A DNA stretch of 64,000 nucleotides from an uncultured Candidatus Saccharibacteria bacterium. Its GTDB lineage: Bacteria > Patescibacteriota > Saccharimonadia > Saccharimonadales > UBA10212. The translations under genes and the position numbers were made by a program. Position 1 is the first letter of the stretch. The number at the start of each line of letters is the position of its first letter. Below the pieces are notes generated by a model, which saw only the letters and a program-made list of their open reading frames with translations, ran no database searches and had not been told where the DNA came from. This document shows positions 1,785 to 44,842 of this stretch, piece after piece. The stretch lies in contig CAYUUT010000001.1 in assembly GCA_964448095.1 (NCBI GenBank), positions 29,067 through 93,066 of the forward strand, read 5' to 3'.

Positions 1785-1994
1785 CTAAGACTTACCGTTT
1801 AGGTACTTACCGGCAACACTGAGAGCTAAAGAGGTAAGGATAACAAAAACGGTGGCCATCAGTAGTCTCATAATTACCCTGTTGAAACCAGACATGTCAT
1901 TGTCATTATCAGGCATTGTTAGTACTTGTATTACGCCTAAAACACCAAAGACTATTGAAGCACTCATAAAAACTCGTGTGGCTATTTTTTGCAT
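1785..1994 (-). CDS. small membrane protein (2 predicted TM helices)
   Basis: 69-aa ORF with two hydrophobic stretches. Its stop abuts the start of the VOC gene. Confidence 0.4.
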   Translation of the reverse strand: MQKIATRVFMSASIVFGVLGVIQVLTMPDNDNDMSGFNRVIMRLLMATVFVILTSLALSVAGKYLNGKS

Positions 1995-2084
1995 ACCTAT
2001 ATTGTATCAATGCCGATAGAAGGCAGGCATATATTTCTCCCTGACAAGAGTTATTTGACAGGGAGATTATGCTACTATTAGCTC

Positions 2085-2426
2085 ATGGCGATGCAGGTTT
2101 GGCCTGAGCGAGACGACATACACCCAGCCTCTTATTTACTCTATGCAGTCGGCTGGTGGTTAACTGGAACAATCGTAACCTTTGTCTTAGTAGGCTACAC
2201 TTTATACACTAACGTAACGGCTGATGGCAGCCACGTAAAAATCTATAATTGCACTCAGCAGGAAGCTGACGCAGGACAGGCGTGTACTTATCAAACTGCT
2301 GGTAAATATTTCCAGCAAACCGTACACGGTGATCTATGGATAGATGGATTTATCGTAGGAACGATTGCGGTCTTATCTTACGGATACCGCCTAGCGACAC
2401 ACCGCCGCTATAAAGACGAAGACTAG
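2085..2426 (+). CDS. hypothetical membrane protein
   Basis: 113-aa ORF with hydrophobic segments (YLLYAVGWWLTGTIVTFVLVGY and GFIVGTIAVLSYGY). Confidence 0.4.
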   Translation: MAMQVWPERDDIHPASYLLYAVGWWLTGTIVTFVLVGYTLYTNVTADGSHVKIYNCTQQEADAGQACTYQTAGKYFQQTVHGDLWIDGFIVGTIAVLSYGYRLATHRRYKDED

Positions 2427-2511
2427 TGTAGTACTACTAGACCTAGAAAAGTTAAAGCGGCTTACGAAAAATCCAAGTCAAAGCGTCAAGCGCTTACCCG
2501 TGTATAAAAAG

Positions 2512-2979
2512 CTAGTACGGCCGCTGCAATGCAATAATAAATATAAGTAGAGTCAGGACTAGAGAGGTCCAAGAATATGCCATTTTAGTAAGTTTCCGGT
2601 CTATAAATAACAGGAAGATATGGGCCATCATATAGACCAAGAATACAGAGTAGAGAACGTGGACATAATTCAGGTGATGAAATGCGAAGTTCGTTATAAA
2701 AACAAAAATTACTGCAGCAAAAGGCGACCCGAACTCTCCTGCATATGGCCTTAACTTATCTTCTGCATGAAATAATCTGAATATGTCTGTAAAGACAGCC
2801 CCAGCAAGACCGAACACAATAAGAAAAATTAGGTATGCGAAAAGGATAGAAATAATGTAAAACTCTACGCCTCTTAACAATCCTCTTTCGTGGATTCCAG
2901 CAAACAATAATACTAGTGTGGCTGATATTCCAAGGAGTTTCAGCCCGCTCATTCCAAGCATTAATTTTTTACTATGCAT
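2512..2979 (-). CDS. hypothetical polytopic membrane protein
   Basis: 155-aa ORF that is almost entirely hydrophobic helices, in an AT-rich region. Confidence 0.5.
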   Translation of the reverse strand: MHSKKLMLGMSGLKLLGISATLVLLFAGIHERGLLRGVEFYIISILFAYLIFLIVFGLAGAVFTDIFRLFHAEDKLRPYAGEFGSPFAAVIFVFITNFAFHHLNYVHVLYSVFLVYMMAHIFLLFIDRKLTKMAYSWTSLVLTLLIFIIALQRPY

Positions 2980-3160
2980 AACTAAACTATATTCCAGCTT
3001 TCAACTTTTTCACATAATTTCTTTTATGTGATTTTCTGACTTTGCATTGGGCAGTCCTTAGTGGACATACTTCGAACTCAATTTGACTTGCCGCTAGTAG
3101 TCCGCAGAGGTTATGCACTATAATAAAATTGTAAGTGGGCAGTAGGAAGGTTATCCGATT

Positions 3161-4333
3161 ATGTTCGACAAAATTTTACAATGGCCGAACCCTATAACGC
3201 CCGAGAACTGGAGAAAGACGGATGTTTCTGAGATATATGATGCTTCCGTCCACGGTGCCGTACCTCAGCTCCAAACGTTCATAAAACTACTGACATTCAT
3301 TCAGTCAGGCATTGGAGCTTGCTCTGATCCTAAGGCCTTTGAGAACTGGAGCTTCAATAACAGCTATGATAATTTGCTGGCAACCTGGATTGATCTCCTA
3401 AATAGGTTAAGAGACACCGCGCAAGGACAGCCCGAATGGCTTCACCAAGGGTACTGGAATTTTAACGGTAGCCAGGTTGGCCCATGGAATGTGAGTCTAG
3501 ATACCTCTACCGGAAATTTTACTGTCAATAATGACCCGAATCTCCTGCCCGACGTATCTAAGCAGCAGGATTTCGGCCTATTTTACGAAGTTGGGCGCGA
3601 GCTTCAAAAACTGAATAATCTTGTCCGCGGTGGCGTAAATTCCGCTCTAACTAAAGCATCTTTGAAAAGGATTGAAGATAGGACAGAAGAAACTATTGGC
3701 GATATCAATTCTAAGCTTGAGGCGGCAACGGCCGACAAAGTTGCTCAAATCAAAACTGTTCAAGCTTCTAAAGACTGGAGCGAACACTACGAAGATCGCT
3801 GCTCTGAACTTACCAAAATAATTGATGGTGACGATAAGAGCAAGAAAAAAGGATTAAAGCAAATTCGAGATTACTGGTATAGGTGGCTAGTTGCAACATT
3901 TGTTGTGTATGCAGTAGGAGCCTTGTTATTAATTCACGGTTGGTGGATTTTTAAGATAAATTCGTCTATTGACGCAACAGCTACGGGTTTCGGAAAATAT
4001 TTTATAGGACTAACCTTGTATGGTGTTATCACTGGCGTATACATTGGCTACGCTTACTCAGTAAGACAATTAAAAGTTAATCAGAACTTGCTCGAGCAGT
4101 ATAGGCATCGTTCAATTGTAGCTAAGACAATAGAGGGTGTAGTGCTTGCGGTTATTAAGACAAAAGAAGAAACAGCCGCTCCGGGAGAAGAAAGTGTTCT
4201 TAGAGATGAAGACCTCGAGCAATTAGTAAAGGTTGCCGCGACTTCTATGTTCGAGTATCGTCCTATCGGCCATCTTTCAACAAAAGAAGGAACGAGTGTA
4301 ATTAGCGATTTGTTAAGCGGTCGCAGTAGCTAG
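3161..4333 (+). CDS. hypothetical protein: large soluble/coiled-coil N-terminal region followed by 2 TM helices and a short C-terminal domain
   Basis: 390-aa ORF. TM candidates are WLVATFVVYAVGALLLIHGWWIF and YFIGLTLYGVITGVYIGYAYSV. There is a charged helical segment at about aa 160-240. A GGAAGG lies before the ATG. The gene is AT-rich. Confidence 0.6.
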   Translation: MFDKILQWPNPITPENWRKTDVSEIYDASVHGAVPQLQTFIKLLTFIQSGIGACSDPKAFENWSFNNSYDNLLATWIDLLNRLRDTAQGQPEWLHQGYWNFNGSQVGPWNVSLDTSTGNFTVNNDPNLLPDVSKQQDFGLFYEVGRELQKLNNLVRGGVNSALTKASLKRIEDRTEETIGDINSKLEAATADKVAQIKTVQASKDWSEHYEDRCSELTKIIDGDDKSKKKGLKQIRDYWYRWLVATFVVYAVGALLLIHGWWIFKINSSIDATATGFGKYFIGLTLYGVITGVYIGYAYSVRQLKVNQNLLEQYRHRSIVAKTIEGVVLAVIKTKEETAAPGEESVLRDEDLEQLVKVAATSMFEYRPIGHLSTKEGTSVISDLLSGRSS

Positions 4334-5454
4334 GTCGGCGTATATAAATTTTTGGATAATGAGTGTTTTGTCAGAATTTTCATTCTTGAAACTCTGAAAG
4401 TTCTATCGGCGTGGTCTAGTTCGCAGAATGCATTCACATAGACCTTCTTCTTATTAACAATCCTGCCCATGTAACGATAGCCCTTATAGATGTCTTTCGG
4501 GTGAATCACTCTATAAGAATGTAGGCCATCGCGGTCGGTATAGCTTATTTGAACTCCTGTTTTATTTTTCAAGGCCGTTGAAAGTGTCTTTATCTTTATT
4601 GTAGGTTCATAGTTTTCTCCATAATCGTCCATGGCATCAAACTTGCGATCTAGAAAATTACGATAGTGCTTGTCTTCATGGCAATCCTTACAAAGCGTTT
4701 GTAGGTTGCTCATGGCGTTTGTTCCGCCTAGTCTTAGAGCAAGTTTGTGGTCAACAGTCAGATTTGTATGCGACCCACAAACTGCGCACGTGTAGTTATC
4801 TCGCTGAAAAACTCTACTCCTTAACTCGCCCCATTTACTGTCTTGGCTAAGGCCTCTTCCACCAATCGGTGCGGTCCAGACATTTGCTTGTACTGGAACC
4901 CGTACCTCCGGCTCCTCTTTTTTGGTGATTTTATCGAAAGACTCACAACCCTCATCTAAATTACAAAATTTAGGATTTGAAATCTGAAACTGGCCTCTCT
5001 TAAGTTCATAATTTCCTCTGAGTTCATAAACAACACCTCTTTTAATTAACAGAGCAACATTAACCGCAAACCAAACTACTCTTACATTCCCAGTCTCATC
5101 TGAAAATACGCCATTAGTAACTCTTAGCCCATTCCGTACAAAGCGAGACGTTAGCTGTTGGAATGTGCCATGTAGATGCACATGCCCTGGCCTTAGTGCA
5201 TTTACATAGTCCAAGCCTGGGTATACTAGCTTGGATGAACGAAACATTTCTTCTATTTCCTCAGCCTCTGTATCCGAGTCATCTAGTGTTCTATAACTAA
5301 CCTTAACGCTGGAGTTATGGGGCAACTTTCTCTTGCTAGATGCAATATTTTTTGTGCCAAAAAGAAAGCTCAATAGTTTATATAAAAATGTTTCGTTATC
5401 TGCCATTTCCCTAGACTCATTAATCTGATTAAATTTTACTCGCAAGGGGCGCAT
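4330..5454 (-). CDS. HNH endonuclease with an N-terminal OB-fold-like domain and a C-terminal WYL-like domain
   Basis: The HNH core is CAVCGSHTNLTVDHKLALRLGGTNAMSNLQTLCKDCHEDKH. The segment VHLHGTF...FSDETGNVRVVWFA...GVVYELRGNYELKRGQFQISNP looks like a RecG-wedge/tRNA_anti type OB fold. The C-terminus ISYTDRDGLHSYRVIHP...VYVNAFCELDHADRTFRVSRMKIL follows the WYL-domain pattern. Confidence 0.7.
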   Translation of the reverse strand: MRPLRVKFNQINESREMADNETFLYKLLSFLFGTKNIASSKRKLPHNSSVKVSYRTLDDSDTEAEEIEEMFRSSKLVYPGLDYVNALRPGHVHLHGTFQQLTSRFVRNGLRVTNGVFSDETGNVRVVWFAVNVALLIKRGVVYELRGNYELKRGQFQISNPKFCNLDEGCESFDKITKKEEPEVRVPVQANVWTAPIGGRGLSQDSKWGELRSRVFQRDNYTCAVCGSHTNLTVDHKLALRLGGTNAMSNLQTLCKDCHEDKHYRNFLDRKFDAMDDYGENYEPTIKIKTLSTALKNKTGVQISYTDRDGLHSYRVIHPKDIYKGYRYMGRIVNKKKVYVNAFCELDHADRTFRVSRMKILTKHSLSKNLYTPT

Positions 5455-5533
5455 TTGATAAATTATTCCAGCAGCAACAGTAAACTGATGACTACGAGTC
5501 CTAGTGCGTAATAATAATTGAGCGACATACGAG

Positions 5534-5558
5534 AAAACCGCCCACTCCGGGCGGTTTT
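5534..5558 (-). terminator. rho-independent terminator downstream of the 234-aa cassette ORF
   Basis: Stem CCGCCC/GGGCGG with a 5-nt loop, flanked by AAAA and TTTT. On the minus strand the hairpin is followed by UUUUCUC. Confidence 0.6.
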
Positions 5559-5571
5559 CTTTAGAACTCTT

Positions 5572-5599
5572 GAACTAAAACTTAGGCTAGTTCGACTGT
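5572..5599. repeat. direct repeat copy A (28 bp, identical to the rplL 3' end copy at 6384-6411)
   Basis: GAACTAAAACTTAGGCTAGTTCGACTGT occurs exactly twice. Weaker similarity continues for about 15 nt (GCCGGCTT shared). Confidence 0.9.
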
Positions 5600-5612
5600 T
5601 AAGCCGGCTTTC

Positions 5613-6317
5613 TTAACCTGGCAGAGTATCTTCGGTGTCGTGTTCTGAGCGGGCATAGGCTATATCAACCCAGTCTTGGCCTTCTGGAGTGGCATCTAGT
5701 TTCCTTAGAACGTCCCAATCTTTGGAGAATGGGGTTACAAAAAATCTTTTGCCGTCGTGATAACCCCTAATAGGCACCCACTTTACAGTAGCCGCTACTG
5801 TCATAGCCTGAACAAGGTTTTTGGGGGTTACTCCCTCTATGTGTGAAGGAGCCTGCAGAACGGGAGATTTTACAAAAGCCGCGGCAATAGACTTGCCCTG
5901 CTCAGCGGACTGACGGTAATGTTGCTCTACGCCTTCAAAGCCAGGTATTAAGGCTGCCAATGTAACTGCGCTCATGGGCTCAACTTGGCTTACCGCAATA
6001 GCGTAAGTATCGGATAGCACCTCGCCGTGAGCCCGGTCTATGGCTGCAGCTACTTCGTCTTGGGCATCTTTATCTTCTAAAAATTCGCCCCAGCGTGATG
6101 CACGGGCTATGGCGTCGTATAGCATAGTTAGGTCATCCCTATTTCTTCGCGCCCAGGCTTCGGCGTCCTTTAACTCTTCCGTTTCAAGGTAAGTCTCAAA
6201 AGCCTGGTCCATCTGGGCCTGTGTAAAAACACGACCGTCGCTTAATCTATAGCGGCCATCTGGCAACTTAGCAAAACCACCTTCGTTTCCACTAGGAATT
6301 TCACTAGACATTGACAT
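5613..6317 (-). CDS. hypothetical acidic protein (cassette ORF downstream of rplL); probably leaderless from the ATG at 6311
   Basis: 234-aa ORF with no recognised motif. A TTGAAT-N16-TATAAT promoter ends 1 nt upstream of the first ATG, so the third codon (ATG at 6309-6311) is the likelier start. Confidence 0.55.
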   Translation of the reverse strand: MSMSSEIPSGNEGGFAKLPDGRYRLSDGRVFTQAQMDQAFETYLETEELKDAEAWARRNRDDLTMLYDAIARASRWGEFLEDKDAQDEVAAAIDRAHGEVLSDTYAIAVSQVEPMSAVTLAALIPGFEGVEQHYRQSAEQGKSIAAAFVKSPVLQAPSHIEGVTPKNLVQAMTVAATVKWVPIRGYHDGKRFFVTPFSKDWDVLRKLDATPEGQDWVDIAYARSEHDTEDTLPG

Positions 6318-6318
6318 T

Positions 6319-6346
6319 ATTATAACATAACTCTGGTGATATTCAA
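6319..6346 (-). promoter_or_regulatory. sigma70-type promoter for the cassette ORF
   Basis: On the minus strand TTGAAT (6341-6346), a 16-nt spacer and TATAAT (6319-6324), immediately after the rplL terminator. Confidence 0.5.
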
Positions 6347-6369
6347 AAGAACCGCCGGTTTCCCGACGG
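6344..6369 (-). terminator. rho-independent terminator after rplL
   Basis: On the minus-strand RNA a 7-bp stem CCGUCGG/CCGGCGG (one G-U pair) and a GAAA loop are followed by UUCUUUU. The mismatch would be C-A on the plus strand, which supports minus-strand function. Confidence 0.5.
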
Positions 6370-6383
6370 CCCTTTTTGTCTGC

Positions 6384-6411
6384 GAACTAAAACTTAGGCT
6401 AGTTCGACTGT
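6384..6411. repeat. direct repeat copy B, overlapping the last 18 nt of rplL plus 10 nt downstream
   Basis: Exact 28-bp match to 5572-5599. Confidence 0.9.
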
Positions 6412-6918
6412 GGCGCCGGCTTCTTCCAAAGTCTTCTTGGCAGCTTCAGCGTCTTCTTTGCTGGCCTTTTCTAGTACAGGCTTAGGAACGGTGTCTGTGA
6501 TAGCTTTGGCTTCACCCAGGCCTAGACCGGTGATGTCTTTAACAGCTTTGATGACGGCTACTTTTTGGGCGCCGGTATCCTTAAGGATGACGTCAAATTC
6601 GCTCTTTTCGTCGGCGGCTGGAGCGGCATCGCCACCGGCCGGAGCGGCCACAGCGACGGCCAGAGCAGCAGCGCTAACGCCCCAGTGCTCTTCTAAAAGC
6701 TTAACGAACTTGCTGACTTCCAGAGCGCTCATCTTGTCGAGTTTCTCTACCAAGTCTTTGAACTCTTTAGGAACTGCAACATCAGCCTTTTTCTCTTCTT
6801 TGGCTTCTTTCTTGGGCTCTTCAGCCTTAGCTTCGGCCTTGGGGGCTTCTTTGGGCTCTTCGGCAACAGCGGCTGCAGCCTCGGTTACTTCGTCCTTCTT
6901 TACTTCTTCGTCTGCCAT
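6394..6918 (-). CDS. rplL: 50S ribosomal protein bL12 (L7/L12) with a roughly 50-aa Lys/Glu/Ala-rich N-terminal extension
   Basis: [26 protein letters not shown] ... [21 protein letters not shown] ... [10 protein letters not shown]. The gene lies downstream of rplJ. Confidence 0.95.
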
Positions 6919-6935
6919 AATATCTCCTTTACTTA

Positions 6936-7466
6936 TTAACTTATTGATTCGCTGCGGGCTTCCAGAACGTTCAGGACACTCCGCAAATTGGCATTCATGG
7001 TTCCAACCAGGCCGGATAACGGCGAGGCGATAATACCTACCAGCTGACCACGCAATTGATCCTTGGTGGGCAAGTTAGCGAGCATTTGTACGTCAGCGGC
7101 GCTCAAAACACTGCCATCGGCGCTTAGACCAGCTACAAATTGGATTTGCGGCTGCTCTTTAGCGAAAGTGGCCAAACTTTGGGCGGGAGCGACGTCGTCT
7201 TCGGCGTTGAAGGCATAAAGCAGCTGGCCCTTGAGCAAGCCCGGGTCGACGTCTTTAAAATGTTCGCTGGCGGCCAAAGCTTGTTTGAACAGGCGGTTTT
7301 TGATGACCCGTACGCGCGTGCCGTTTTCGCGGGCGTCACGGCGCAGCTTTTGCATAGCCTGAACTGAAGTACCGGGGTAGATTGCTACCACAGTTAGCTT
7401 AGCCGAATCCAGTAACTCGGTTACTTCGGCGACGACTTCCTTTTTCTTGTCTCTGCTTAGAGCCAT
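6936..7466 (-). CDS. rplJ: 50S ribosomal protein uL10
   Basis: 176-aa ORF directly upstream of rpl[43 protein letters not shown] is typical of L10. Confidence 0.9.
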
Positions 7467-7480
7467 TTTGTGCCTTTCAA

Positions 7481-7513
7481 AATAAAAAATCTTTGGCTTA
7501 CTTGCACCAAAGA
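7481..7513 (-). promoter_or_regulatory. terminator-like hairpin plus U-run inside the rplJ 5' leader (possible L10-leader attenuator)
   Basis: On the minus strand UCUUUGG-10 nt loop-CCAAAGA is followed by UUUUUUAUUUU, about 15 nt before the rplJ ATG. Confidence 0.35.
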
Positions 7514-7520
7514 CTCGACG

Positions 7521-7548
7521 AATATTGCTAAAAATTGATTTTTGGCAA
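7521..7548 (-). promoter_or_regulatory. candidate promoter for rplJ-rplL
   Basis: On the minus strand TTGCCA-N16-AATATT, upstream of the leader hairpin. Confidence 0.3.
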
Positions 7549-7634
7549 CCTCGGTAGCGGATTAAGGCTTTTGGCCGGCTACTGTCTCTGGTATCTAGCT
7601 AAGATTCTAGCAGATAAGGGGTTAGCTGACAAGT

Positions 7635-9488
7635 TTATTTTGCGCTGCGGCGTCTATTTGAACGGCGGCGGGCACTTTTGGACTGTTTTGGCTTGTCTTC
7701 TAGCTGCCGGCGCAAAGAATCGGCGATTATGGGGTGGTGTTGGCTAATATTCTGCCAAAGCTGCTCCAGCAGGCTGTCAAACAGTTTAGAGCGGACTTTA
7801 GGTATCTTCTGCAGCGCGCCCAAGTTGCAGCTGAACTGAAAGCGCACGCGGTGGCCGGTAAGTGTGGCATAGGCGGCTAGTTCCGGCTCCTTGCCGGCTT
7901 GGAGCTTGCTGAACATTTCCAGACTCAGGTCAAAGCATTCTATAAATTCATTCTCCAGGCCAGCGGCTTCTATACCAGCTGGTACGTCATAACCGTAGCG
8001 CGGGGTTGGGGCTTGCAGTTGCAAACCGCTGACCAAGCCGCTGAGCAGTAGTTCTAATATCAACCCCTGTTCGGCTATAACATCCCAGCGGTAGCGCACC
8101 TGCCCCGCCAGCGCCGGGTCAATATCGGCCAAAATTGCGCTGAGCGCCTGGAACTTTTGCTCGTAATTCCAGTTTTCTATGCCGGCCTGGACTTGCTGGC
8201 GCGGTAAATCGCTGATGTCGTACAAGCTGTCGCTAAGCAGGCTGAATTCGTTATGTGGCCAAGCTTCTAGCAGCGTTACGACCTCCGTTTCGGTTGAAAT
8301 TTTAGGCGATGTTTGGCCGTGGGCCAGTTTTTCCAGCTGTTTCTTGGCTTGGTTGTGCTTGATGTCTAGTTTAGGCTCGCGCAGTTTGGAACCGTCCTTG
8401 CTGGTGTGCAAGTAGCAATAAGTCGCCATCGGCATTAGCAAGCCCAGAATTTCTTCGCTGTCGGCGGACTTCCTTTTGGCCAGCTCCTTTTCTACCTTTT
8501 GGCGATAGGCGGCGATTTGCTTCATAAACGCCTGGTATTGCTTGAGCAGACTTGGCTCCAGGCTGGGAGTGTAGTATTCCGGCTGCTTGGCGCCCATTTC
8601 TAGCCCTTCTAAATCCAGATTGCCAGACTTGGACTCTTCAATCAGCGCTAAAAGGCTTAATTTGGCTGGGCTAGCCTGTGCGGGTTGGCTAGTTGGCGTA
8701 TTTTGAGCCTTGGGCTTAGGCTCAGACCGCTCGGCTGGCTCATCAAATCTAACTACCGCGCCGCGGGCGGGCCGGTGTGGCTTTTCCGGCAGCATAGGCT
8801 TAACTATTTCCCAAATACGGTTATTAATAGCCGGGACGCTGAGTAGCCGGTCTTCATCAGTGCATTCTATAGCCTTAAAATCCCGTGGAAATAGCTGGCA
8901 GAGGGTGTCATAAGTGGCGACTGATTTACGCAGGTGCTCGATATCGGCCTCGTGCTCATCGCGCTTTTTATCGGTGTAGCTGCGTTGATTTTTATTGGCG
9001 ATTAACTGATAAGAAACTTCGGCCGGTACCCTTAGGAATAAATTGATATTCGGCCGCGGGATGCCGAGTAGTTCGAACTCCAGGCTCTCAGACCAGATGA
9101 AAAATCCGCGCTGTTCGGCCGGGTTAGTGAATTTAGAGCCCTGATGCGCCATATTTGAGCCGACGTAGCGGTTAGATAGCACTACCTTGCCGCTATCCAG
9201 AGCTTTCCTGATATCTATGGCCGCCTCGTAACGGTCGAGGGCATAGAACAGCGAGGCGCTATAGGGACTGATTTCTGAAGCCGGGCCGTAATCGCCGTTT
9301 AGGTAGCGCTGCACAAAGTGGCTGGAAGGTTGGTCATAGCGCGGAAAATCAAAGGTTTCAACATCATAGCCCACGGCTTTTAGCCGCTCGGTGAGCAGCT
9401 TGAACTGGGTTCCTTTGCCGGAGCCGTCCGAACCTTCTAAGACTATAAAAATTCCGTTATTCATATGTGGGTAGATATGCTCCGCCAA
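7635..9488 (-). CDS. tmk: dTMP kinase fused to a long C-terminal region resembling degenerate ThyX (Thy1) repeats
   Basis: The N-terminus FIVLEGSDGSGKGTQFKLLTERL ... ALDRY ... SNRYVGSNMAHQG indicates thymidylate kinase. After a Pro/Gln/Ala linker, the segments YYTPSLEP...LGLLMPMATYCYL and TPRYGYDVP...AAYATLTGHRVRFQFSCNLGAL...HHP resemble ThyX but lack the RHR motif. An ATG at 9464 is an alternative start. Confidence 0.7.
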   Translation of the reverse strand: MAEHIYPHMNNGIFIVLEGSDGSGKGTQFKLLTERLKAVGYDVETFDFPRYDQPSSHFVQRYLNGDYGPASEISPYSASLFYALDRYEAAIDIRKALDSGKVVLSNRYVGSNMAHQGSKFTNPAEQRGFFIWSESLEFELLGIPRPNINLFLRVPAEVSYQLIANKNQRSYTDKKRDEHEADIEHLRKSVATYDTLCQLFPRDFKAIECTDEDRLLSVPAINNRIWEIVKPMLPEKPHRPARGAVVRFDEPAERSEPKPKAQNTPTSQPAQASPAKLSLLALIEESKSGNLDLEGLEMGAKQPEYYTPSLEPSLLKQYQAFMKQIAAYRQKVEKELAKRKSADSEEILGLLMPMATYCYLHTSKDGSKLREPKLDIKHNQAKKQLEKLAHGQTSPKISTETEVVTLLEAWPHNEFSLLSDSLYDISDLPRQQVQAGIENWNYEQKFQALSAILADIDPALAGQVRYRWDVIAEQGLILELLLSGLVSGLQLQAPTPRYGYDVPAGIEAAGLENEFIECFDLSLEMFSKLQAGKEPELAAYATLTGHRVRFQFSCNLGALQKIPKVRSKLFDSLLEQLWQNISQHHPIIADSLRRQLEDKPKQSKSARRRSNRRRSAK

Positions 9489-9528
9489 CTGCCCACCAGC
9501 TGACTATAATTTAACCATAAACAACCGT

Positions 9529-10041
9529 TTAAGCAAATTGCTTGCCAACAATATTCCTGTCGGACTCCTTATTAAAGAGGTTTTCGCTGTCTTCCAGCAG
9601 ATAAACTCGCGTGATGCCGTTTTTGATAAGCGTGTCCCAGCAGGCCTCGCAGCACCACCAGTGCCCCCATAGATAGGCATCGGCACCCGCGGGGTCGTGG
9701 CCCGAGCGTTTGGCGTCTTCGATAGCCCGCGGTTCGCTATGGTTCTTAGGGTGGCAGCCTTCGCACAGTTCGTAGCCCTGCCCGGTTGGAATATTCAACC
9801 TTACGCGCTCGCAAACGTGCGTTTTGTGGTAATCGCTGCCGTTGGCTCCGCGGCCGATGATTTTGCCGTCTTTGACCAGCACCGTTCCAGTTGGCATAAC
9901 GTCGTCTAAGGACGAAGTCCGGGCTTTTTCCTTAGCGACTTGCATGAACTCGTTATTAGCCGGGACATAAGCAAACCGCCCCTTGGGATGCATGTAAGGG
10001 TATTTGATTTTTGTCGCGGTTTTTGCGGCTTTTGTCGTCAT
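9529..10041 (-). CDS. dCMP/cytidylate deaminase-fold protein
   Basis: VLVKDGKIIGRGANG, HSEPRAIEDA (H-x-E) and WWCCEACWDTLIKNGI (C-x-x-C), as in ComEB/dCMP deaminases. Confidence 0.7.
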   Translation of the reverse strand: MTTKAAKTATKIKYPYMHPKGRFAYVPANNEFMQVAKEKARTSSLDDVMPTGTVLVKDGKIIGRGANGSDYHKTHVCERVRLNIPTGQGYELCEGCHPKNHSEPRAIEDAKRSGHDPAGADAYLWGHWWCCEACWDTLIKNGITRVYLLEDSENLFNKESDRNIVGKQFA

Positions 10042-10098
10042 ATCTCTCTTATAAAGTATAGCAATCTTTGGCTAACATCTCTATAATTAGCCCACACG

Positions 10099-10935
10099 AT
10101 GGCGGTATTTGACGGTATATATCAGTCCCTTCTGAAGGACATTATGACTAAGGGCTCAAAGGAGCTTAACGAACGTACTGGGCACGAAACTGCTGCCCTG
10201 CCGGGCGTTAGTTTTTCGCTTGATTTAAAAAAGAACGGCTTCCCGCTGCTAAGTTTGCGCAAAATCCCCACCAAAATCCTGATTGCCGAACAGATATGGT
10301 TTATATCCGGAGCGCGCAAGCCGGCAGTCTTCCTGCGCGACTACACCCGTATTTGGGACGATTTTACCAACCCCGGCGACGTGGTTACCGTGGCCTATGG
10401 CTACCGCTGGCGGCGGCATTTTGGCCGCGACCAGCTGGGCTTGCTTATAAAACTTCTGCAGAAAGACCCTTCATCGCGCCACGGCGTGGTTGTCACCTGG
10501 GATCCGTCCAGCGACGGTCTGGGAGGTGTCAGCAAGAGCAATATTCCCTGCCCCTACACCTTTACGGTCAATATCATCGGCGGCCGGCTTAATCTGATGA
10601 ATGTCGTCCGTTCCAATGACATGATTCTTGGTTTTCCGCACGACGTCGGCGGCTTTGCCCTGTTGCAAACCATGCTGGCCCAAAAACTGGGCGTAGAAGT
10701 CGGCGTTTACACTCACACCATAGCTAACGCCCACGTCTACGACATCCACTACAATGCCGCTAAAGAGATGATTAGGCGCCCAACTAGCTCCAAAAAGATC
10801 AGCTTCGTACTCCCAGACAACAGCTTTGGCCGGGCTGAAGCTAAAGACCCATCGCTGGTTGATGAAATTAACGCCCGCTTGACGGCCCACTACAAGCCGG
10901 GCGAGCCAATCAAAGATCTGAAAATAGTTCTATAA
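10099..10935 (+). CDS. ThyA-family pyrimidine-C5 methyl/hydroxymethyl transferase with Asp at the base-specificity position
   Basis: ERTG, GFPLLSLRK, AEQIWF, AYGYRWRR, DPSSRHGVVVTWDP, catalytic IPCPYTF and VRSNDMILGFPHDVGGFALL all align with thymidylate synthase and dCMP hydroxymethylase motifs. A TATAAT lies 11 nt before the ATG. Confidence 0.8.
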   Translation: MAVFDGIYQSLLKDIMTKGSKELNERTGHETAALPGVSFSLDLKKNGFPLLSLRKIPTKILIAEQIWFISGARKPAVFLRDYTRIWDDFTNPGDVVTVAYGYRWRRHFGRDQLGLLIKLLQKDPSSRHGVVVTWDPSSDGLGGVSKSNIPCPYTFTVNIIGGRLNLMNVVRSNDMILGFPHDVGGFALLQTMLAQKLGVEVGVYTHTIANAHVYDIHYNAAKEMIRRPTSSKKISFVLPDNSFGRAEAKDPSLVDEINARLTAHYKPGEPIKDLKIVL

Positions 10936-10944
10936 TGAAAGCCT

Positions 10945-11616
10945 ATGCCAGTATTAAATAACGACGACATCCTGGACTACGTCCGCAAGGGCAAGCTTGG
11001 TTTTGATCCCCAGCTCGACCAGTTCCAGCTACAAGCCCATTCGGTAGATTTAAGGCTGGGCTTTACCTTTTTGGTGCCAAAATCCTGGCAAGTGACCGGC
11101 GAAGGCCGCGAGCAGCTACACATGGACTACTACGCCGCCGAGCGGCCGGAGCACTTTGACGTTGTTGAGCTAGAAAAGGGCCAATTCTTTGATTTGCTGC
11201 CTGGTGAGCACATCCTGGTCTCGTCCTTGGAGTCAGTCAAGGTTCCCGATGATTTGATGGCCACGATGTACCCACGCTCATCTATCAACCGCAAGGGAAT
11301 TTCCGTAGACCAAACCGGCATTGTAGACAGCGGCTATGAGGGTCAGTTGGTCATACCTATCCGCAACAATACCCGTTCGCAAACCGTGCGGCTGTATCCC
11401 GGTGAACGTTTTTGCCAATTAGTTTTCCAGAAACTCAGCGCGCCGGTGCAAGCCCGTAAAAGCCGCTATCATCAGAAAGACATAATTGAAGGCGTCGACG
11501 TCGACAGTTTAGAGGATGAACGCCAGATAGAGATAGAAAGCATCACTGCGGGCGACATAAGAAAGCTAAAGACAGACTATCCAGCAGACAAGAAAGCCGG
11601 ACGGCCTAAAAAGTAG
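10945..11616 (+). CDS. dcd: dCTP deaminase (dUTPase-fold) with a charged C-terminal extension
   Basis: HSVDLRLG, MYPRSSINRKGI, DSGYEGQLVIPIRNN, GERFCQLVF. Confidence 0.85.
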   Translation: MPVLNNDDILDYVRKGKLGFDPQLDQFQLQAHSVDLRLGFTFLVPKSWQVTGEGREQLHMDYYAAERPEHFDVVELEKGQFFDLLPGEHILVSSLESVKVPDDLMATMYPRSSINRKGISVDQTGIVDSGYEGQLVIPIRNNTRSQTVRLYPGERFCQLVFQKLSAPVQARKSRYHQKDIIEGVDVDSLEDERQIEIESITAGDIRKLKTDYPADKKAGRPKK

Positions 11617-12025
11617 CTAGCCAATCCAGAATCAACTGAGGCGCGTCGTCGCCCAGGCTCTTATATCGGATAAAACTAAACTTCTCCTCGGCCTCCGCCG
11701 CGCCCATTATTAGACGGCTAATTTTTGCATCTTTTTGGGCCAGCGCCAGGACCGGCTTATCCAGTTCGGTGGCTACACCCAATTCAAAGCCTAAACCCAG
11801 CCCAGGGTGGTCACAGATGGCGATAAAAGCGTCGCAGTGCTTGATGCAGTGGTCAATATCCCACTCATAAACGCCCTTAGGAGTACCAGCCACAAGCCCC
11901 AAAAAGTCGAAGACTTCGTAGTCTTTACCCTTAAGAACCGATTTTAGCTCCTCGACGTCTTTCTTAAAATCTTCCGGCGCGTCTGTTAGCGCGCAGCCGA
12001 TGTACAGTTTAGTCTTAGACGCCAT
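11606..12025 (-). CDS. nucleoside 2-deoxyribosyltransferase-like (Rcl/NDT family) protein
   Basis: KLYIGCAL ... DIDHCIKHCDAFIAICDHPGLGLGFELGVATELDKPVLAL matches the NDT-family pattern, including the Glu. The gene follows rplA by 13 nt. Confidence 0.55.
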   Translation of the reverse strand: MASKTKLYIGCALTDAPEDFKKDVEELKSVLKGKDYEVFDFLGLVAGTPKGVYEWDIDHCIKHCDAFIAICDHPGLGLGFELGVATELDKPVLALAQKDAKISRLIMGAAEAEEKFSFIRYKSLGDDAPQLILDWLATF

Positions 12026-20121: not shown

Positions 20122-22059
20122 ATGGGCCGGGTGGTGATGCTGGGCAATGGCGAGCTACTGGTCGGCCTTAATGAATTCGGCCTGGTCCACGACTTTTACT
20201 TCCCTTATGTCGGCGAAGACAACCTGACGAACGCCCGAAGTCTGCAGCATTTAATCGGCGTCTGGGTAGATAATCGCTTTTCCTGGCTGGATGATAACAC
20301 CTGGAAGATAAACGTCGATTTTGAAAGCGAAGCCTTGATAAGTAAAATCAGCGCCGAAAATGCTGATTTAGGCGTCCGGCTAGAGTTTGCCGATTTTGTC
20401 GATTCGGAATTTACGGCTTTTTGCCGCCGCATCAAGGTCAAGAATCTTAAAGACGACCGGCGCGAAATCCGGATATTCATGCACCAGGTTTTCCAGATTT
20501 CACAGCGCGGCCGAGCCGACACCGTCCTATATGTCCCTGAGGGCAATTACCTATACGACTACAAAGGTACCTGCTCCTTGCTGATTAGCGCCCGCACCAG
20601 CGCCGGCCAGCCTTTTGACCAATTCTCGCTGGGTAATTTCGGCATAGAAGGCAAAGAAGGCACTTATAAGGACGCCGAGGACGGCAACCTGGACGGCAAC
20701 CTGGTCGAACACGGCAGCGTGGACTCGGTTGTCCGGTCTTCGCTTTTATTAGACGGCGGCGCCGAAGATTACGTTGATTACTGGGTGATAGCCGCCTTTT
20801 CGCAAATAGAGGCCGAGGATATTCACAATGAGCTAGCCCAGCAGGGCCTGCACGGACGCCTCGACCACACCAGAGCCTACTGGCACGATTGGCTGGAACC
20901 AGCTAAAGCCAAAACCGAATCGATTGCCGAAAGCCGGCGTGATATTTACAAAAAGTCGCTATTGGTAGTCAAAGCCCACATAGACAAACGCGGCGCCATA
21001 ATCGCCAGCGGTGATTCCTCTATCTATAACTACGGCCGGGATTATTACAGTTACGTTTGGCCGCGGGACGGCGCGCTGACCATGCTAACCATGATGCGGG
21101 CCGGCTTTTTTGAGGAGCCCAAGCGCTTTTTGCAGTTCTGCGCCGATACTATGCACCCCAAAGGCTATATGATGCATAAATACCAGCCTGACCGTTCGAT
21201 TGGCAGTACCTGGCACCCATTAATGCACCGCCACCATCCGGAACTGGCTATCCAGGAAGACGAAACCGCTTTAGTGATTATTGCCTTGGCCGAATATTAT
21301 CGTCAAACAGAGGACAAGGAGTTTCTAAACTCGGTTTACCCCGGTTTAGTGTTGCGGGCCGGTAATTTTATGGCCCGTTTTATTGATGAGCAAACCAATC
21401 TGCCCCATGCCAGCTATGACCTCTGGGAGGAGCGCTTTGGAACCCACACCTTTACGGCAGTAGTGTCCAAGCGGGCTCTGGAGGACGCCGCTTATCTGGC
21501 AGACAGTCTCAAGCACGCCGAGAGCGCCCAGGAGTGGCGCCAGGCCGCTGAACGCATTGGTAAAGCTCTGGATCAATTGTATAGCCCAGATACTAAGTGT
21601 TACCGCAAGGGCCAGTACTTAAATAGCGATGGGCAGATAGAAAATAACGACACGGTTGATGTTTCCAGCCTGCTGGCATTTTTGGAATTCTATCCCGACA
21701 AGCTAGCCGATGACAAGATCAAACAAAGCGCCGAAACCATCGAGAAGCGGCTATTTAACAGTAGTCCGGCCGGCGGAGTTGTCCGTTACGAACACGACAA
21801 TTACTTCTTAGCTCATCCGGAGTACATCGGTAATCCCTGGATAATCTGCAGCTTTTGGCTGGCCCAGTACTATCTCAAAAATGACCAGCGCGATAAGGCC
21901 GAAGAGTTGATAGAATGGTGCCTCTCAACCGCCACTCCCAGCGGTATATTATCCGAGCAAGTCGACCCCTTGAACCGCCAACAAGTCGGTGTCTCGCCTC
22001 TGGTTTGGAGCCATGCGGAAGTTATAAATTCGTTATTAGCTTTTTATCAAACAAGTTAA
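20122..22059 (+). CDS. glycoside hydrolase family 15 (glucoamylase/glucodextranase-like), full length with N-terminal domain
   Basis: [12 protein letters not shown] and [15 protein letters not shown]. Size is 645 aa. Confidence 0.8.
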
Positions 22060-22259
22060 CGTCTTGGTTTGACTTCGTTGCGGCCTAAGTTCTTCTTGGT
22101 TTCGACTTGCTTAGCCTGGATGCGTTTTACCGGGCAATATTTCATAAGTTCCACTTTGTCAGGAGTGTTCAAGGTATTTTTGGTGGTGTAATAATGGCGC
22201 TGCTTGCAAGCCTCGCAGATTAGACCAATCAATTTTCGCTTATCGCCTTTTTTAGCCAT
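22056..22259 (-). CDS. rpmG: 50S ribosomal protein bL33
   Basis: [46 protein letters not shown]. The first CxxC is retained and the second is reduced to a single Cys. Confidence 0.85.
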
Positions 22260-22369
22260 ATCAACCTGTAACTTTAACAGATTAGATTCCGATTTTCAAT
22301 AACAAACTGCAGCCAGCCAATTCGGCAAAATCCTGAATTTTTGTCGAATTGAGAGGAGCAACAATGGAG

Positions 22370-22415
22370 GCCCTGCCCAATTTGTGCCACTTGATCGCGC
22401 AAATTGAGGCAGGGC
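22370..22415. repeat. long imperfect inverted repeat between tRNA-Thr(GGT) and rpmG
   Basis: GCCCTGCCCAATTTG ... CAAATTGAGGCAGGGC gives about 15 bp with one bulge and a roughly 15-nt loop. No U-run follows. Confidence 0.7.
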
Positions 22416-22433
22416 TGGAATTAGTTGCGACGA

Positions 22434-22508
22434 TGGAGCCGTGACCGGGACTTGAACCCGGGACCCCCTCCTTACCATGGAGGTGCTCTACCACTGAGCT
22501 ATCACGGC
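22434..22508 (-). tRNA. trnT: tRNA-Thr (anticodon GGT), 3' CCA encoded
   Basis: Acceptor GCCGTGA/TCACGGC, D arm GCTC-AGTGGTA-GAGC, anticodon arm CCTCC-ATGGTAA-GGAGG, and T arm CCGGG-TTCAAGT-CCCGG. Confidence 0.9.
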
Positions 22509-22553
22509 ATTAACACCTTATTATTCTACAAGATACGCACTAATGATTAAAGC

Positions 22554-23576
22554 CTAAGCGGCCTGAGCAATAACTTCTTGGATTTTGCCTAGTGCTTCTT
22601 GAATGGTCTTGGCTTCTACCTTGCCGCCGGCGGATGATTTATGACCGCCGCCACTTAGCGCTCTTGCCAGTTTAGAAACGTCTTGCGAGCCCCTAGCCGC
22701 CCTAAATGATATTGAGTATATATTCTCGCCCTCTAAGGAGTTGAGATACGCTATAAAGCCCTTGTCCCTGCCGTCTATATTGCGGATGTAGTTGTCTATA
22801 AAGATCTTGTTAGCCCGCTGTAAGGACGCCTGGGGTTTGCCGGATTTTTGCCAGTTATCTACAAATTCGTCGCCGAGATAACTGTAAGTAAAGTCCTTAA
22901 AGTGCGATAGGTTTTTTGCCAGCTCGCTGACAACTTGCATCTGGTCTTCGCTAAACTGGTTAAGCTGGTATTTTAGGGCCTCTACGGTCGCCCCCTCGCG
23001 CACCAGCTTAGCCGCCAGCTCCAGAGCGTCAGCGTTAGAGACATCGACATAGGTAAACCCACCGGTATCACCGTACAGGCCGGTCATCGCAACCTGTGCT
23101 GAGTCGTCGGGCTTTTTAAAATTTAGCTGCGAAAAGATAAGCCCGTATATCTCTTGGACCGAGGCTGATTTTATGGAGTTTATGTACAAATCGGACTCAT
23201 CCCTGCCTTCGGGTTCATGGTGGTCAATAATAACCACTTTGACCTGGTTCAGTTTGATATATTCACGGAGTTTTTCACCACCCTTCCGGCTTGCCCGGCT
23301 AAAATTGGCAACGTCGACCAAAATAAAAAGATCAGGCTTTAGCTCAACAATAGCTTCATCTAGAGGTGCGAACTTAATCTGGTTGTAGCCGCTTATAAAA
23401 CTGAGGGCGTCGGGCTCCTCCTCTAAAATCATCTCGATACTCTTGCCAGGAAAGTTTAATTTAAGAGCTCCGCTGAGCAAAAGCGTGGATGCCACGGCGT
23501 CCGGGTCCGGCGAGATATGCGAAGTCACCAGAATCTTGTTTGACTGCTGCAGTAAATCTTTAAATTTATCAATCAC
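22554..23576 (-). CDS. nrnA: DHH-family phosphoesterase (NrnA-like oligoribonuclease/pAp phosphatase)
   Basis: VTSHISPDPDAVAS, VVIIDHHEP and the DHHA1 motif GGGHKSSAGG. Confidence 0.8.
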   Translation of the reverse strand: MIDKFKDLLQQSNKILVTSHISPDPDAVASTLLLSGALKLNFPGKSIEMILEEEPDALSFISGYNQIKFAPLDEAIVELKPDLFILVDVANFSRASRKGGEKLREYIKLNQVKVVIIDHHEPEGRDESDLYINSIKSASVQEIYGLIFSQLNFKKPDDSAQVAMTGLYGDTGGFTYVDVSNADALELAAKLVREGATVEALKYQLNQFSEDQMQVVSELAKNLSHFKDFTYSYLGDEFVDNWQKSGKPQASLQRANKIFIDNYIRNIDGRDKGFIAYLNSLEGENIYSISFRAARGSQDVSKLARALSGGGHKSSAGGKVEAKTIQEALGKIQEVIAQAA

Positions 23577-23837
23577 TAAAACTGATACTACACAGTTAGA
23601 AGACCTTGGGCAAGATTCATCGAACCTCTAGCTTCCCGGATTTGGATCACATGGTTTTATCAATAAGACTAGGCTTGGGATCAAAGATGTTGTGATGCTT
23701 ATCACATACGATGGAGAAGCAGCGTAATATACTTATCCTTAGCTAGTCGAGATGACTAGGTGCGCTATTTAAGGAGAGCCTTGCTCAGACGGTATAACTA
23801 AGTACGGCATTAGAAATTACAAACTAAACTTAAGCAA

Positions 23838-23866
23838 TTGACGGGAATTTAGCAAAACCCTACAAT
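23838..23866 (+). promoter_or_regulatory. sigma70-type promoter for the DUF3494-sortase pair
   Basis: TTGACG-N17-TACAAT, about 33 nt upstream of the ATG at 23900. Confidence 0.55.
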
Positions 23867-23899
23867 GACCTTGACAACTTAAGACGAGAATGATGATAT

Positions 23900-24793
23900 A
23901 TGAATAAGCTTAATCTACGTTCAATAATAACAATTGTGGTTTCCGCTGCCTTTGTGTTTGGTCTACTTGCACCGGTCGACGCGTTCGCTGCAACTTCACC
24001 CATACTGGCTGGGTCAGCAGGCTACTCTGTTCTGGGCGGCGCGGGAGTGACTTGTACTGGGCCGACCACCACCACTGGAGCCGTCGGTGTCAGTCCGGGC
24101 AGCTCTATTACCGGTTTTCCCAGTCCATGTACTGCCGGGGGCGGCACACATTCCAATGATGCCAGCGCTATAGCGGCCCAAGCTGATACCCTCACCACTT
24201 TCGGCGCTCTCGACCAAACCTGCGATCACAGCTACGGCGCACAGGATTTAACTTTACTCTCTCCTCTTGGGCCGGGTGTCTATTGCTCCACTAGCGGCTT
24301 CACACTGAGCGGAAACCTAACCCTCACCGGGTCAGGCGTCTGGATTTTCAAGACTGTGTCGACGCTCATTACCTCGCCTGGCTCATCCGTTACCGGTGGC
24401 GATCCTTGTAACATATGGTGGAGGATTGGCAGCTCCGCGACTCTTGCTACGACCACTTCGTTCATAGGTAATATTTTTCCACTTAATGGTGTCACCGCCC
24501 TGCAAACCGGCGCAACCTTAAACGGTCGGGTCTTGGCGCAGTCTGCTGGTACGGTAACCTTGGCCTCCAACACTATCAGTGGCCCCACCTGTGCCACAAC
24601 CGGTTCTTCTGGCGGCAGTGGTAGCGGCAGTGGTAGTGGTAGCACTCCCTCCTCGACCACCACTCCAGGTGCACCCGATACGGGTTTGGGGGTATATTCG
24701 ACAAATCCTTGGCATGGCCTTGCGACCTACGGTCTTGGAGCAATGGGTCTTTTGGCTTTAGCCTTCGTAGCAAGACGAACTGCCAAGAAATAA
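23900..24793 (+). CDS. secreted DUF3494 (ice-binding-like beta-helix) protein with a C-terminal cell-wall sorting-type signal
   Basis: Signal peptide, then LAGSAGYSVLGGAGVTCTGPTTTTGAVGVSPGSSITGFP, which is typical of DUF3494. A GS linker is followed by GAPDTG, a hydrophobic helix and RRTAKK. Confidence 0.75.
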   Translation: MNKLNLRSIITIVVSAAFVFGLLAPVDAFAATSPILAGSAGYSVLGGAGVTCTGPTTTTGAVGVSPGSSITGFPSPCTAGGGTHSNDASAIAAQADTLTTFGALDQTCDHSYGAQDLTLLSPLGPGVYCSTSGFTLSGNLTLTGSGVWIFKTVSTLITSPGSSVTGGDPCNIWWRIGSSATLATTTSFIGNIFPLNGVTALQTGATLNGRVLAQSAGTVTLASNTISGPTCATTGSSGGSGSGSGSGSTPSSTTTPGAPDTGLGVYSTNPWHGLATYGLGAMGLLALAFVARRTAKK

Positions 24794-43386: not shown

Positions 43387-44023
43387 TCTTGTCTCCCAGC
43401 CACTCCGAAACGTGCACCAAAGCCGGCTTAGTAAAGACAACCTTATCGGCGTTTAGAACGTCAAAAACGTTCAAATAACGGGCCTGAGCTAGCTTAACAC
43501 CGCCAACATTGTTGGTTGCGCGTACCAGTTCTGGAGTTTTACTGTCGACTACTAACAAAACGCTCCCGGTAGCATTGATTTTACCTAGGAGCGTCACTGC
43601 GTCTTTGGTCTTAGCGGAGCTAATGGCCATATCATCAATGACGGCAATCTTTTCGCTGGTGGCTGCGAGACTTAAGGCTTGACGCAAAGCTTGGCGTTTA
43701 GCCTGGGTGCTGATTTTAGAGACATAATTCTGGTCGCCGGTCGGGCCAAAAGCAATACCGCCACCGCGCCAGATAGGGTTACGGCTGGAACCGAAGCGAG
43801 CGTTACCGGTGCCTTTTTGGCGCCAGGGCTTCTTGCCGCCGCCACTAACTTCGCCGCGCTTCAGAGTTTTAGCGGCGGCGCTGCGGCCATTGCCCAGGTA
43901 AGCCAGATAAGCTTCTTTTAGAAGCTGGTGATTATCAACCTTCAGGCCAAAGACTTTCTTGTCCAGTTTAGCGGGCGTAGCGGCCTTAGCGCCGGCCTTG
44001 GTATAAGTAGCCACCGCCATCAT
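43379..44023 (-). CDS. rplD: 50S ribosomal protein uL4
   Basis: KPWRQKGTGNARFGSSRNPIWRGGGIAFGP. Confidence 0.95.
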   Translation of the reverse strand: MMAVATYTKAGAKAATPAKLDKKVFGLKVDNHQLLKEAYLAYLGNGRSAAAKTLKRGEVSGGGKKPWRQKGTGNARFGSSRNPIWRGGGIAFGPTGDQNYVSKISTQAKRQALRQALSLAATSEKIAVIDDMAISSAKTKDAVTLLGKINATGSVLLVVDSKTPELVRATNNVGGVKLAQARYLNVFDVLNADKVVFTKPALVHVSEWLGDKNE

Positions 44024-44814: not shown

Positions 44815-44842
44815 TCTGCTGTAAATATTACAAGACTATTTT

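Follow-up and report, generated by a model that had tools for sequence, protein, structure and literature searches.

A gene for a predicted single-chain nuclease was characterized in a stretch of 64,000 nucleotides from an uncultured Candidatus Saccharibacteria bacterium (assembly GCA_964448095.1, contig CAYUUT010000001.1, positions 29,067 to 93,066 of the forward strand), referred to below as the window. The gene is located at bp 4330 to 5454 on the complementary strand, and its product carries an OB (oligonucleotide/oligosaccharide-binding) fold, an HNH nuclease domain and a WYL domain, in that order. This three-domain anatomy, which we regard as close to certain, had been proposed in an earlier note made from the DNA letters and translations, and the proposed domain order was correct; the open reading frame (ORF) given there is intact, and its translation holds all of the motifs that were quoted. 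Three things go beyond that first reading: the OB domain is specifically derived from the wedge of RecG, the protein belongs to a wider family with swappable N-termini that are mostly predicted membrane anchors, and several relatives are linked to the backbone of a conjugative element. With middling confidence, we propose that the protein is a stand-alone nuclease that senses single-stranded DNA (ssDNA) or branched DNA, probably at the membrane, and that serves in defence or in conflict between mobile elements.

Domain anatomy of the OB-HNH-WYL protein

Residue numbers refer to the maximal ORF of 374 codons, with Met1 at bp 5454, and not to the Met17 form described below. An AlphaFold2 model calculated from an 81-sequence alignment had a mean predicted local distance difference test score (pLDDT) of 85.7, with all three globular parts at 89-97 and disorder confined to residues 19-43 and a short linker. 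The HNH nuclease domain, together with a conserved N-terminal extension, was placed at residues 190-265 (bp 4660 to 4887, complementary strand) using Pfam, alignment and the model. Pfam HNH (PF01844) matched residues 223-265 with E=1.8e-10 and 41.2 bits against a cut-off of 21.4, and HNH_5 scored 34.7 bits against a cut-off of 27.5. In an alignment of the relatives (A1), the zinc cysteines C223, C226, C255 and C258 and the catalytic residues D235-H236, N250 and H259 were invariant, H263 was nearly so, and the beta-beta-alpha elements of the HNH fold were visible in the model. The canonical HNH core that had been read from the translation was thus borne out, and the window protein is predicted to be a metal-dependent nuclease with a complete catalytic apparatus.

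A highly conserved acidic linker, FLDRKFDAMDDYGENYEPT, joins the HNH and WYL domains (bp 4600 to 4659, complementary strand; alignments A1 and A2). It contains an invariant Y278-G279 and is modelled with a pLDDT above 90 without regular secondary structure. The WYL domain follows at residues 286-362 (bp 4369 to 4599, complementary strand) and includes the invariant arginines R315, R351, R354 and R357. Pfam WYL (PF13280) matched residues 289-359 with E=1.4e-6 and 28.6 bits (cut-off 21.8), and was matched by 76 of the 81 relatives, with a best E value of 6.8e-18. A search of the Protein Data Bank (PDB) with the family profile returned PafBC (6sj9, E=1.4e-11) and two Pif1 proteins, matched in the WYL region at their C-termini (8bnv, E=1.9e-9; 8bns, E=5e-9), which are WYL-bearing helicases (PMC9964779), as well as BrxR and CapW. 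Foldseek likewise paired the C-terminal barrel with the WYL domains of BrxR (7qfz) and CapW (7tb6) at a probability of 1.00. The suggestion of a WYL pattern in the C-terminal segment is therefore upheld by the Pfam score, by the PDB profile matches and by a confident fold.

The four invariant arginines align with R464, R495, R498 and R501 of DdPif1, which are four of its five predicted ssDNA-binding arginines. For the WYL domains of PafBC (PMC11804915) and CapW (PMC11662680), ssDNA is the experimentally shown ligand, and it has been reported likewise for those of DriD and TePif1. On this basis, ssDNA is the most likely ligand of the window WYL domain.

The RecG-wedge-like OB fold spans about residues 78-176 (bp 4927 to 5223, complementary strand). 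Pfam tRNA_anti-codon OB matched residues 102-162 with E=2.3e-4, but its 21.5 bits were under the cut-off of 27, and independent support was therefore sought. The region forms a five-strand barrel in the AlphaFold2 model, and a Foldseek comparison of this N-terminal barrel with the PDB returned RPA, SSB, the OB domain of PolC and RecG (1gm5), each with a probability of 1.00. When all 1.84 billion cluster representatives were searched exhaustively, the sole protein outside the family to match the OB region (E=7e-11) was a genuine RecG (P0138), in which Pfam recognized RecG_wedge (E=6.4e-28) and, after it, a DEAD helicase domain. Aligned with this RecG's wedge over 87 residues, the OB region shows 40% identity and a pairwise E value of 5e-21. 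The best PDB match of a family profile restricted to the OB domain was residues 157-245 of TmRecG (1gm5, E=0.004), and the family-invariant W128-F129 is aligned to W203-F204 of TmRecG. In RecG, F204 caps the parental duplex of branched DNA and W203 stabilises the wedge (PMC7889586).

The RecG_wedge model of Pfam (PF17191) gave no match to the window protein itself. A truncated family fragment (P0055) did match it (30.3 bits, cut-off 23, E=3.7e-7), and another family member (P0077) scored 16.7 bits, under the cut-off. The OB domain alone found no match in a word-index search. Judged by its similarity at the sequence level, the N-terminal domain is a derivative of the RecG wedge and not a generic OB fold, and it would be expected to bind branched or single-stranded DNA. 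A RecG-wedge/tRNA_anti OB fold had been claimed for this segment in the earlier note, and the model, Foldseek and the wedge similarity confirm it despite the low Pfam score. Profile searches of the two regions flanking HNH accordingly had a mixed outcome, with WYL above its Pfam cut-off and OB below it, though structural modelling and comparison supported all three domains, the OB fold against RPA, SSB and RecG and the WYL domain against BrxR and CapW.

Upstream of the wedge is a hydrophobic or amphipathic helix, TFLYKLLSFLFG, at residues 22-33 (bp 5356 to 5391, complementary strand; helix H7-15 of the model). The motif is conserved in homologues and is possibly a membrane-association motif.

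The HNH-WYL family and the loci of its relatives

Close relatives of the window protein formed 10 clusters at 90% identity in a set of 5.8 billion proteins, and 14 when a profile search was used. The wider HNH-WYL family had 143 representatives at E<=1e-10 among the 1.84 billion cluster representatives. HNH followed by the end motif of WYL was present in 91 representatives, or about 90 clusters at 50% identity. Relatives with both HNH and WYL were found in only three of 185,579 species-representative genomes (an unclassified metagenome-assembled genome (MAG), a Candidatus Saccharibacteria MAG and a 'PVC group' MAG), and six loci with HNH-WYL were found in the JGI metagenome collection.

The constant core of the family, about 170 residues in length, consists of HNH, linker and WYL, with FLDxxFDAxDDYGENY as the linker pattern. 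A transmembrane (TM)-like N-terminal helix replaces the amphipathic helix in 47 of the 91 representatives, and several more have borderline hydrophobic N-termini. Since basic residues mostly come after the TM-like helix, the catalytic part would be cytoplasmic. Longer forms have the wedge OB (about 11-16 clusters), TPR repeats, an FtsZ-like GTPase or a second HNH, and most of them begin with a short amphipathic helix, for example MGLFEKFKEWLF or MGIFDWLF, as the window protein does with TFLYKLLSFLFG. From these N-termini we infer that membrane association may be family-wide. Odd architectures occur among P0014 (439 aa), P0043 (413 aa), P0076 and P0111, namely FtsZ/tubulin GTPase-HNH-WYL, double-HNH and TM plus TPR forms; the fusion of FtsZ to HNH-WYL may be real, or may be an artefact of assembly or gene calling.

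All-against-all BLASTP analysis of neighbouring genes at 15 loci revealed no conserved adjacent gene. Because no gene consistently adjoins HNH-WYL at these loci, the gene is regarded as a single-gene unit, in agreement with the single-protein nature claimed for it at the outset. A possible partnership between the 390-aa product of the gene next to the nuclease in the window and a 202-aa protein at one of the relatives' loci (L001) was considered and rejected, the two being 30% identical with 22% gaps and a pairwise E value of 6e-4, which was judged to be chance.

Judged qualitatively, defence or mobility genes adjoin HNH-WYL at about 10 of the relatives' loci. At one locus (L008, bp 1877-8553), the HNH-WYL gene and two ORFs of no assigned function separate HsdS from HsdR in a type I restriction-modification (R-M) operon. 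At L004 the gene is beside R-M-like genes, a SocA/Panacea gene and DUF2726; at L005 it is beside a helix-turn-helix (HTH) gene and an AAA_15/21 ATPase; and at L128 it is beside a Zeta toxin and several serine recombinases. The L001 locus has an OB-form HNH-WYL gene beside PLD and NERD-helicase genes, on an element that also carries a serine recombinase and a type IV secretion system (T4SS) coupling protein. A TM-form HNH-WYL gene occurs at L130 on the same element backbone, where a TraG/VirB4-like ATPase is also present.

The backbone common to L001 (1-18701) and L130 (1-10989) includes the serine recombinase (67% identity), a Replic_Relax-like protein, DUF7249 and the T4SS coupling protein (50% identity). 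In both elements the HNH-WYL gene is located between backbone modules, and the cargo there is otherwise variable. Two further loci share single backbone components, L010 the coupling protein and L011 DUF7249. L130 has DUF3768 in addition, and the backbone resembles an integrative and conjugative element, apparently from small-genome bacteria. Mapping of homologue neighbourhoods, which had been suggested as a check on the defence idea, thus placed the relatives amid defence and mobile-element genes, in contexts that are variable and non-syntenic.

The gene and its low-GC islet

The maximal ORF (bp 4330 to 5454, complementary strand) is uninterrupted and encodes 374 aa. The true start is probably Met17 (ATG at bp 5406-5404), which would give a coding sequence at bp 4330 to 5406 on the complementary strand, stop included, and a protein of 358 aa. 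The N-termini of homologues line up at Met17, the first 16 codons are unaligned with homologues, and AGGGAA is found directly 5' of the Met17 ATG. A consensus scan gave a promoter-like pair (-35 TTATCA, 17 nt, -10 TAAAAT; bp 5433 to 5461, complementary strand) that overlaps the Met1 ATG and is upstream of Met17. Since promoter-like matches in the region are no more numerous than expected from shuffling, this pair is consistent with a start at Met17 but no proof of it. In one public annotation (P0001) the protein starts at Met70 and has 305 aa, a start judged too short because the conserved N-terminal helix would be deleted; an exact look-up of this 305-aa product returned no contig. An identical protein at an identical locus is present in a second assembly (L045).

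Upstream, RNA folding identified a terminator hairpin with a U-run at bp 5532 to 5560 (complementary strand), which belongs to the unit containing rplL and an ORF of 234 aa. The hairpin has a folding energy of -21.1 kcal/mol (z = -5.4), and none of 200 shuffles was equally stable. Because this strong terminator closes the upstream unit, the nuclease gene is taken to be its own transcription unit. On the other side is the convergent orphan gene for the 390-aa protein (bp 3161 to 4333, forward strand), whose stop codon overlaps that of the nuclease gene in the palindrome CTAG at bp 4330-4333, with no terminator between the two genes. The 390-aa protein has predicted TM helices in its C-terminal half and no match in Pfam, PHROG or PADLOC.

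The nuclease gene has a GC content of 0.406, and 0.376 at third codon positions (GC3), compared with a window mean of 0.509 (sd 0.034). Its GC content is in the lowest 0.6% of equal-sized windows, that is, below 99.4% of them. Composition profiles and the GC and GC3 of individual genes delimit a low-GC islet of approximately 3.7 kb, from about bp 1800 to 5550, with a GC content of 0.37-0.46 between flanks of 0.50-0.55. The islet contains three small membrane-protein ORFs, the 390-aa orphan and the nuclease gene, and it is set between housekeeping genes near rplJ-rplL. Its other ORFs had no Pfam, PHROG or PADLOC match. An AT-rich island and horizontal acquisition had both been put forward in the earlier note; the first is confirmed by the composition of the region, and the foreign-looking base composition agrees with the second, so that the gene looks horizontally acquired. 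In a search for an empty site, the identical L7/L12 protein retrieved the same locus alone, in the second assembly, and no islet-free allele. No convincing att-like repeats were found flanking the islet.

One clear direct repeat of 39 nt brackets the neighbouring 234-aa ORF instead. Its copies, at bp 5572-5610 and 6384-6422, are 92% identical and 812 nt apart, and bracket exactly this orphan ORF (bp 5613 to 6317, complementary strand). One copy comprises the last seven codons of rplL, the stop codon and 10 nt, and the other is located just before the rplL-type terminator hairpin. The arrangement looks like an insertion of approximately 0.8 kb between rplL and its terminator, with the target duplicated. 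The gene for L7/L12 (bp 6394-6918, complementary strand) was called at 174 aa, with an extension of approximately 50 residues rich in Ala, Lys and Glu preceding the usual N-terminal domain. The second assembly has this call too, and either a real extension or an early start codon could account for it.

An L10 leader (RF00557; 65.5 bits, E=6.9e-9) lies upstream of rplJ at bp 7474-7609 on the complementary strand. Inserted between rplA and rplJ is a nucleotide-metabolism block (bp 7635-12025) with a 617-aa thymidylate-kinase fusion, dCMP deaminase, thyA, dcd and a nucleoside deoxyribosyltransferase-like gene; the long C-terminal half of the fusion is without assignment. The rpoB and rpoC genes are far off, at about 58-64 kb of the window. 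At bp 22000-24000 and 44000-46000 the GC content is 0.44-0.48 compared with about 0.52, and these may be other acquired segments.

Proposed function and comparison with known systems

In the mechanism that we propose, the N-terminal amphipathic helix would hold the protein at or near the membrane, a role that a true TM anchor would fill in about half of the family. The RecG-wedge-like OB fold would recognise DNA that is branched or single-stranded; examples are forks, flaps, intermediates of replication or recombination, and DNA that enters the cell in single-stranded form. The WYL domain would bind ssDNA through its conserved arginines, and would either tether the substrate or switch on the neighbouring HNH site, which would then cut the DNA. 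The most likely role is to restrict invading DNA (from phages or plasmids, or conjugative DNA) or to take part in competition between mobile elements, and the contexts described above suggest a part in defence. The gene would travel as cargo of defence islands and of integrative or conjugative elements in small-genome bacteria resembling Saccharibacteria and other members of the candidate phyla radiation (CPR). The family is concentrated in such small-genome, largely uncultured bacteria and in their conjugative elements; in these organisms the biology of defence and of such elements is poorly known.

Several observations count against this proposal. The HNH-WYL family is known from sequences and models alone, and the predicted template modelling score of the model (pTM 0.54) leaves the relative arrangement of the domains undefined. 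The fifth of the Pif1 arginines, R491, is replaced by Asp in the window protein. Single-stranded RNA is the ligand of some other WYL proteins. Cyclic di-GMP is reported as the ligand of another, and a ligand other than ssDNA is thus possible. In the wedge, the equivalent of RecG Tyr208 is Val; in E. coli RecG, likewise, just the Phe is thought to touch a base directly (PMC7889586). The membrane association was derived by hydropathy and amphipathicity calculations alone. The genomic context was drawn from about a dozen loci and is not a statistical enrichment test, and no recognisable defence or mobility gene adjoins the nuclease gene in the window, where the neighbours are orphan membrane proteins and housekeeping genes. 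PADLOC v2 had no model matching the whole window protein and recognised no system, and the neighbours were unmatched too.

Because several relatives ride a conjugative backbone, the function may lie with the element rather than with host defence. A conjugative or integrative element would then use the protein as its own membrane-associated nuclease, either to destroy single-stranded DNA arriving from competing or identical elements (entry exclusion, incompatibility) or to process transferred DNA, an explanation that we consider unlikely. It draws on the shared backbone of L001 and L130, in which HNH-WYL is found between modules despite the difference between OB and TM N-termini, and on the components shared by L010 and L011; conjugative DNA enters as ssDNA, which would fit a WYL/OB sensor at the membrane. 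However, no conjugation genes were found at the window locus, L004, L005, L008 or L131, and the position of the L008 gene inside a type I R-M operon is a host-defence setting. The shared backbone region also has variable cargo (PLD and NERD-helicase genes in L001, a 715-aa protein without assignment in L130), and the nuclease may for this reason be mere favoured cargo.

It is quite improbable that the protein is a housekeeping or nutritional enzyme, either a structure-specific endonuclease at stalled forks or recombination intermediates, operating in the manner of RecG-wedge or ZRANB3-type enzymes, or a cytoplasmic nuclease that breaks down imported DNA to salvage nucleotides in a bacterium with a reduced genome. 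The wedge keeps the fork-capping Phe, the HNH profile also matches the HNH of ZRANB3 (5mkw, E=1.8e-7), and the gene is a few kb from the nucleotide-metabolism cluster with its tmk fusion, dCMP deaminase, thyA and dcd. A core repair or salvage enzyme would nevertheless be expected to be conserved and syntenic, and this family is extremely sporadic in both the genome and the protein sets, has swappable N-terminal modules and variable, non-syntenic contexts, and is represented in the window by a gene of foreign base composition.

We give very little weight to a selfish HNH homing endonuclease, or to a phage-derived HNH protein (for example, packaging-associated) left by a degraded prophage. The HNH domain is most similar to the phage families phrog_589 (E=8e-20) and phrog_144 (E=2e-17), and the gene is in a small low-GC islet of orphan genes. 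Against this, the 80 matches listed from 2.9 million viral contigs were all to the HNH region alone, with no HNH+WYL relative among them, and structure matches in BFVD were to single domains, again with no HNH+WYL. An intron, intein or terminase context is lacking, the other ORFs of the islet lack PHROG matches, and WYL, wedge and membrane anchors are not features of homing endonucleases.

A nucleic-acid-guided nuclease related to IscB or Cas9, as the earlier note had entertained, is effectively refuted: by sequence, the HNH region matched IscB best in both NCBIfam and the PDB (NF040563, E=1.4e-13; 9k2z, E=7.2e-5), but the match spans approximately 60 HNH residues with 50.6 bits against a cut-off of 175, neither Pfam nor the model has a RuvC, bridge-helix or PLMP domain, no Rfam RNA save the L10 leader occurs within 12 kb, and no arrays or repeats flank the gene.

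The proposal of a DNA-sensing nuclease can be extended to a more specific one, which we hold to be doubtful: the whole HNH-WYL family may be a hitherto unrecognised class of nucleases that are tethered to the membrane, gated by ssDNA and stand guard where DNA comes in. A TM helix or an 'MGLFxKF'-type amphipathic helix would anchor members to the membrane's inner face. Single-stranded or branched DNA appearing there during conjugation, natural transformation or phage genome injection and early replication would activate them, and they would cleave it. The RecG-wedge variant found in the window would be specialised for forked intermediates, and the family would be spread by CPR conjugative elements, serving as an entry-exclusion or immunity module. 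Membrane tethering, if true, would imply surveillance of DNA where it enters the cell, and such a protein would give the first example of direct gating of a nuclease by WYL. At about 200-360 aa, HNH-WYL proteins are a compact single-polypeptide system in which gating could be studied.

As a bare architecture, the combination of HNH and WYL had been noted before. A 2014 paper included it in a list of WYL fusions and discussed it in the setting of prokaryotic defence (PMC4012209, Makarova et al. 2014), and the proteins referred to there likewise have HNH and a predicted WYL ligand sensor in one polypeptide. In that text the combination is named in a list only, without family definition, wedge or TM modules, context analysis or experiment. 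Neither 'HNH-WYL' nor 'WYL-HNH' was found as a term in our literature search, nor was a functional study. The statement that the domain order belongs to no named system accordingly stands, as PADLOC gave partial, single-domain matches only; standard defence finders do not flag the window gene.

The HNH catalytic domain is shared with ZorE of Zorya II, PtuB of Septu and the type IV enzyme McrA. ZorE (E=5e-5) and PtuB (E=0.14) were matched in PADLOC and McrA was matched as 6ghc, all in the HNH region only, and one homologue is labelled 'McrA' by JGI. Unlike in these systems, the partner genes ZorABCD and PtuA and the N-terminal 5-methylcytosine-reader domain of McrA are absent at the window locus. 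The nuclease core of Shedu is DUF4263/PD-(D/E)xK. According to a study of Shedu (10.1101/2023.08.10.552793), it likewise combines one enzymatic core with a variety of N-terminal domains for sensing or targeting, all encoded by a single gene. [quoted passage not shown]

WYL domains are now seen mainly as ssDNA sensors of defence and DNA-damage transcription factors, or as accessory ssDNA binders of helicases. The former include CapW, BrxR, PafBC and DriD, which have a winged HTH-WYL-WCX organization, share the WYL fold and the association with defence islands, and have ssDNA as their activating ligand. The window protein, in contrast, has no HTH or WCX domain and an OB fold in its N-terminal region, and is for that reason not a transcription factor; that possibility was ruled out, with no HTH match in Pfam. 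Its output would be DNA cleavage and not gene regulation, and a WYL domain fused straight to a nuclease would show a sensor driving an effector without a transcriptional step. Closer in layout are the Pif1-WYL proteins (TePif1, DdPif1 8BNV and SsPif1 8BNS) and Cas3-WYL, in which WYL is likewise C-terminal on a nucleic-acid enzyme; in TePif1 it is an accessory ssDNA-binding module. Unlike the Pif1-WYL helicases, the window enzyme is an HNH nuclease with a RecG-wedge OB fold and an N-terminal membrane-type helix, and is rare and linked to mobile elements.

The OB fold of the window protein shares with RecG both the similarity of the wedge and the W203-F204 pair. Where RecG has a superfamily 2 helicase core and TRG motifs, however, the window protein has neither (DEAD, Helicase_C and ResIII gave no match), and its wedge is followed by HNH and WYL. 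A RecG wedge appears to have been recruited into a nuclease, which points to branched DNA as a possible immune or conflict signal.

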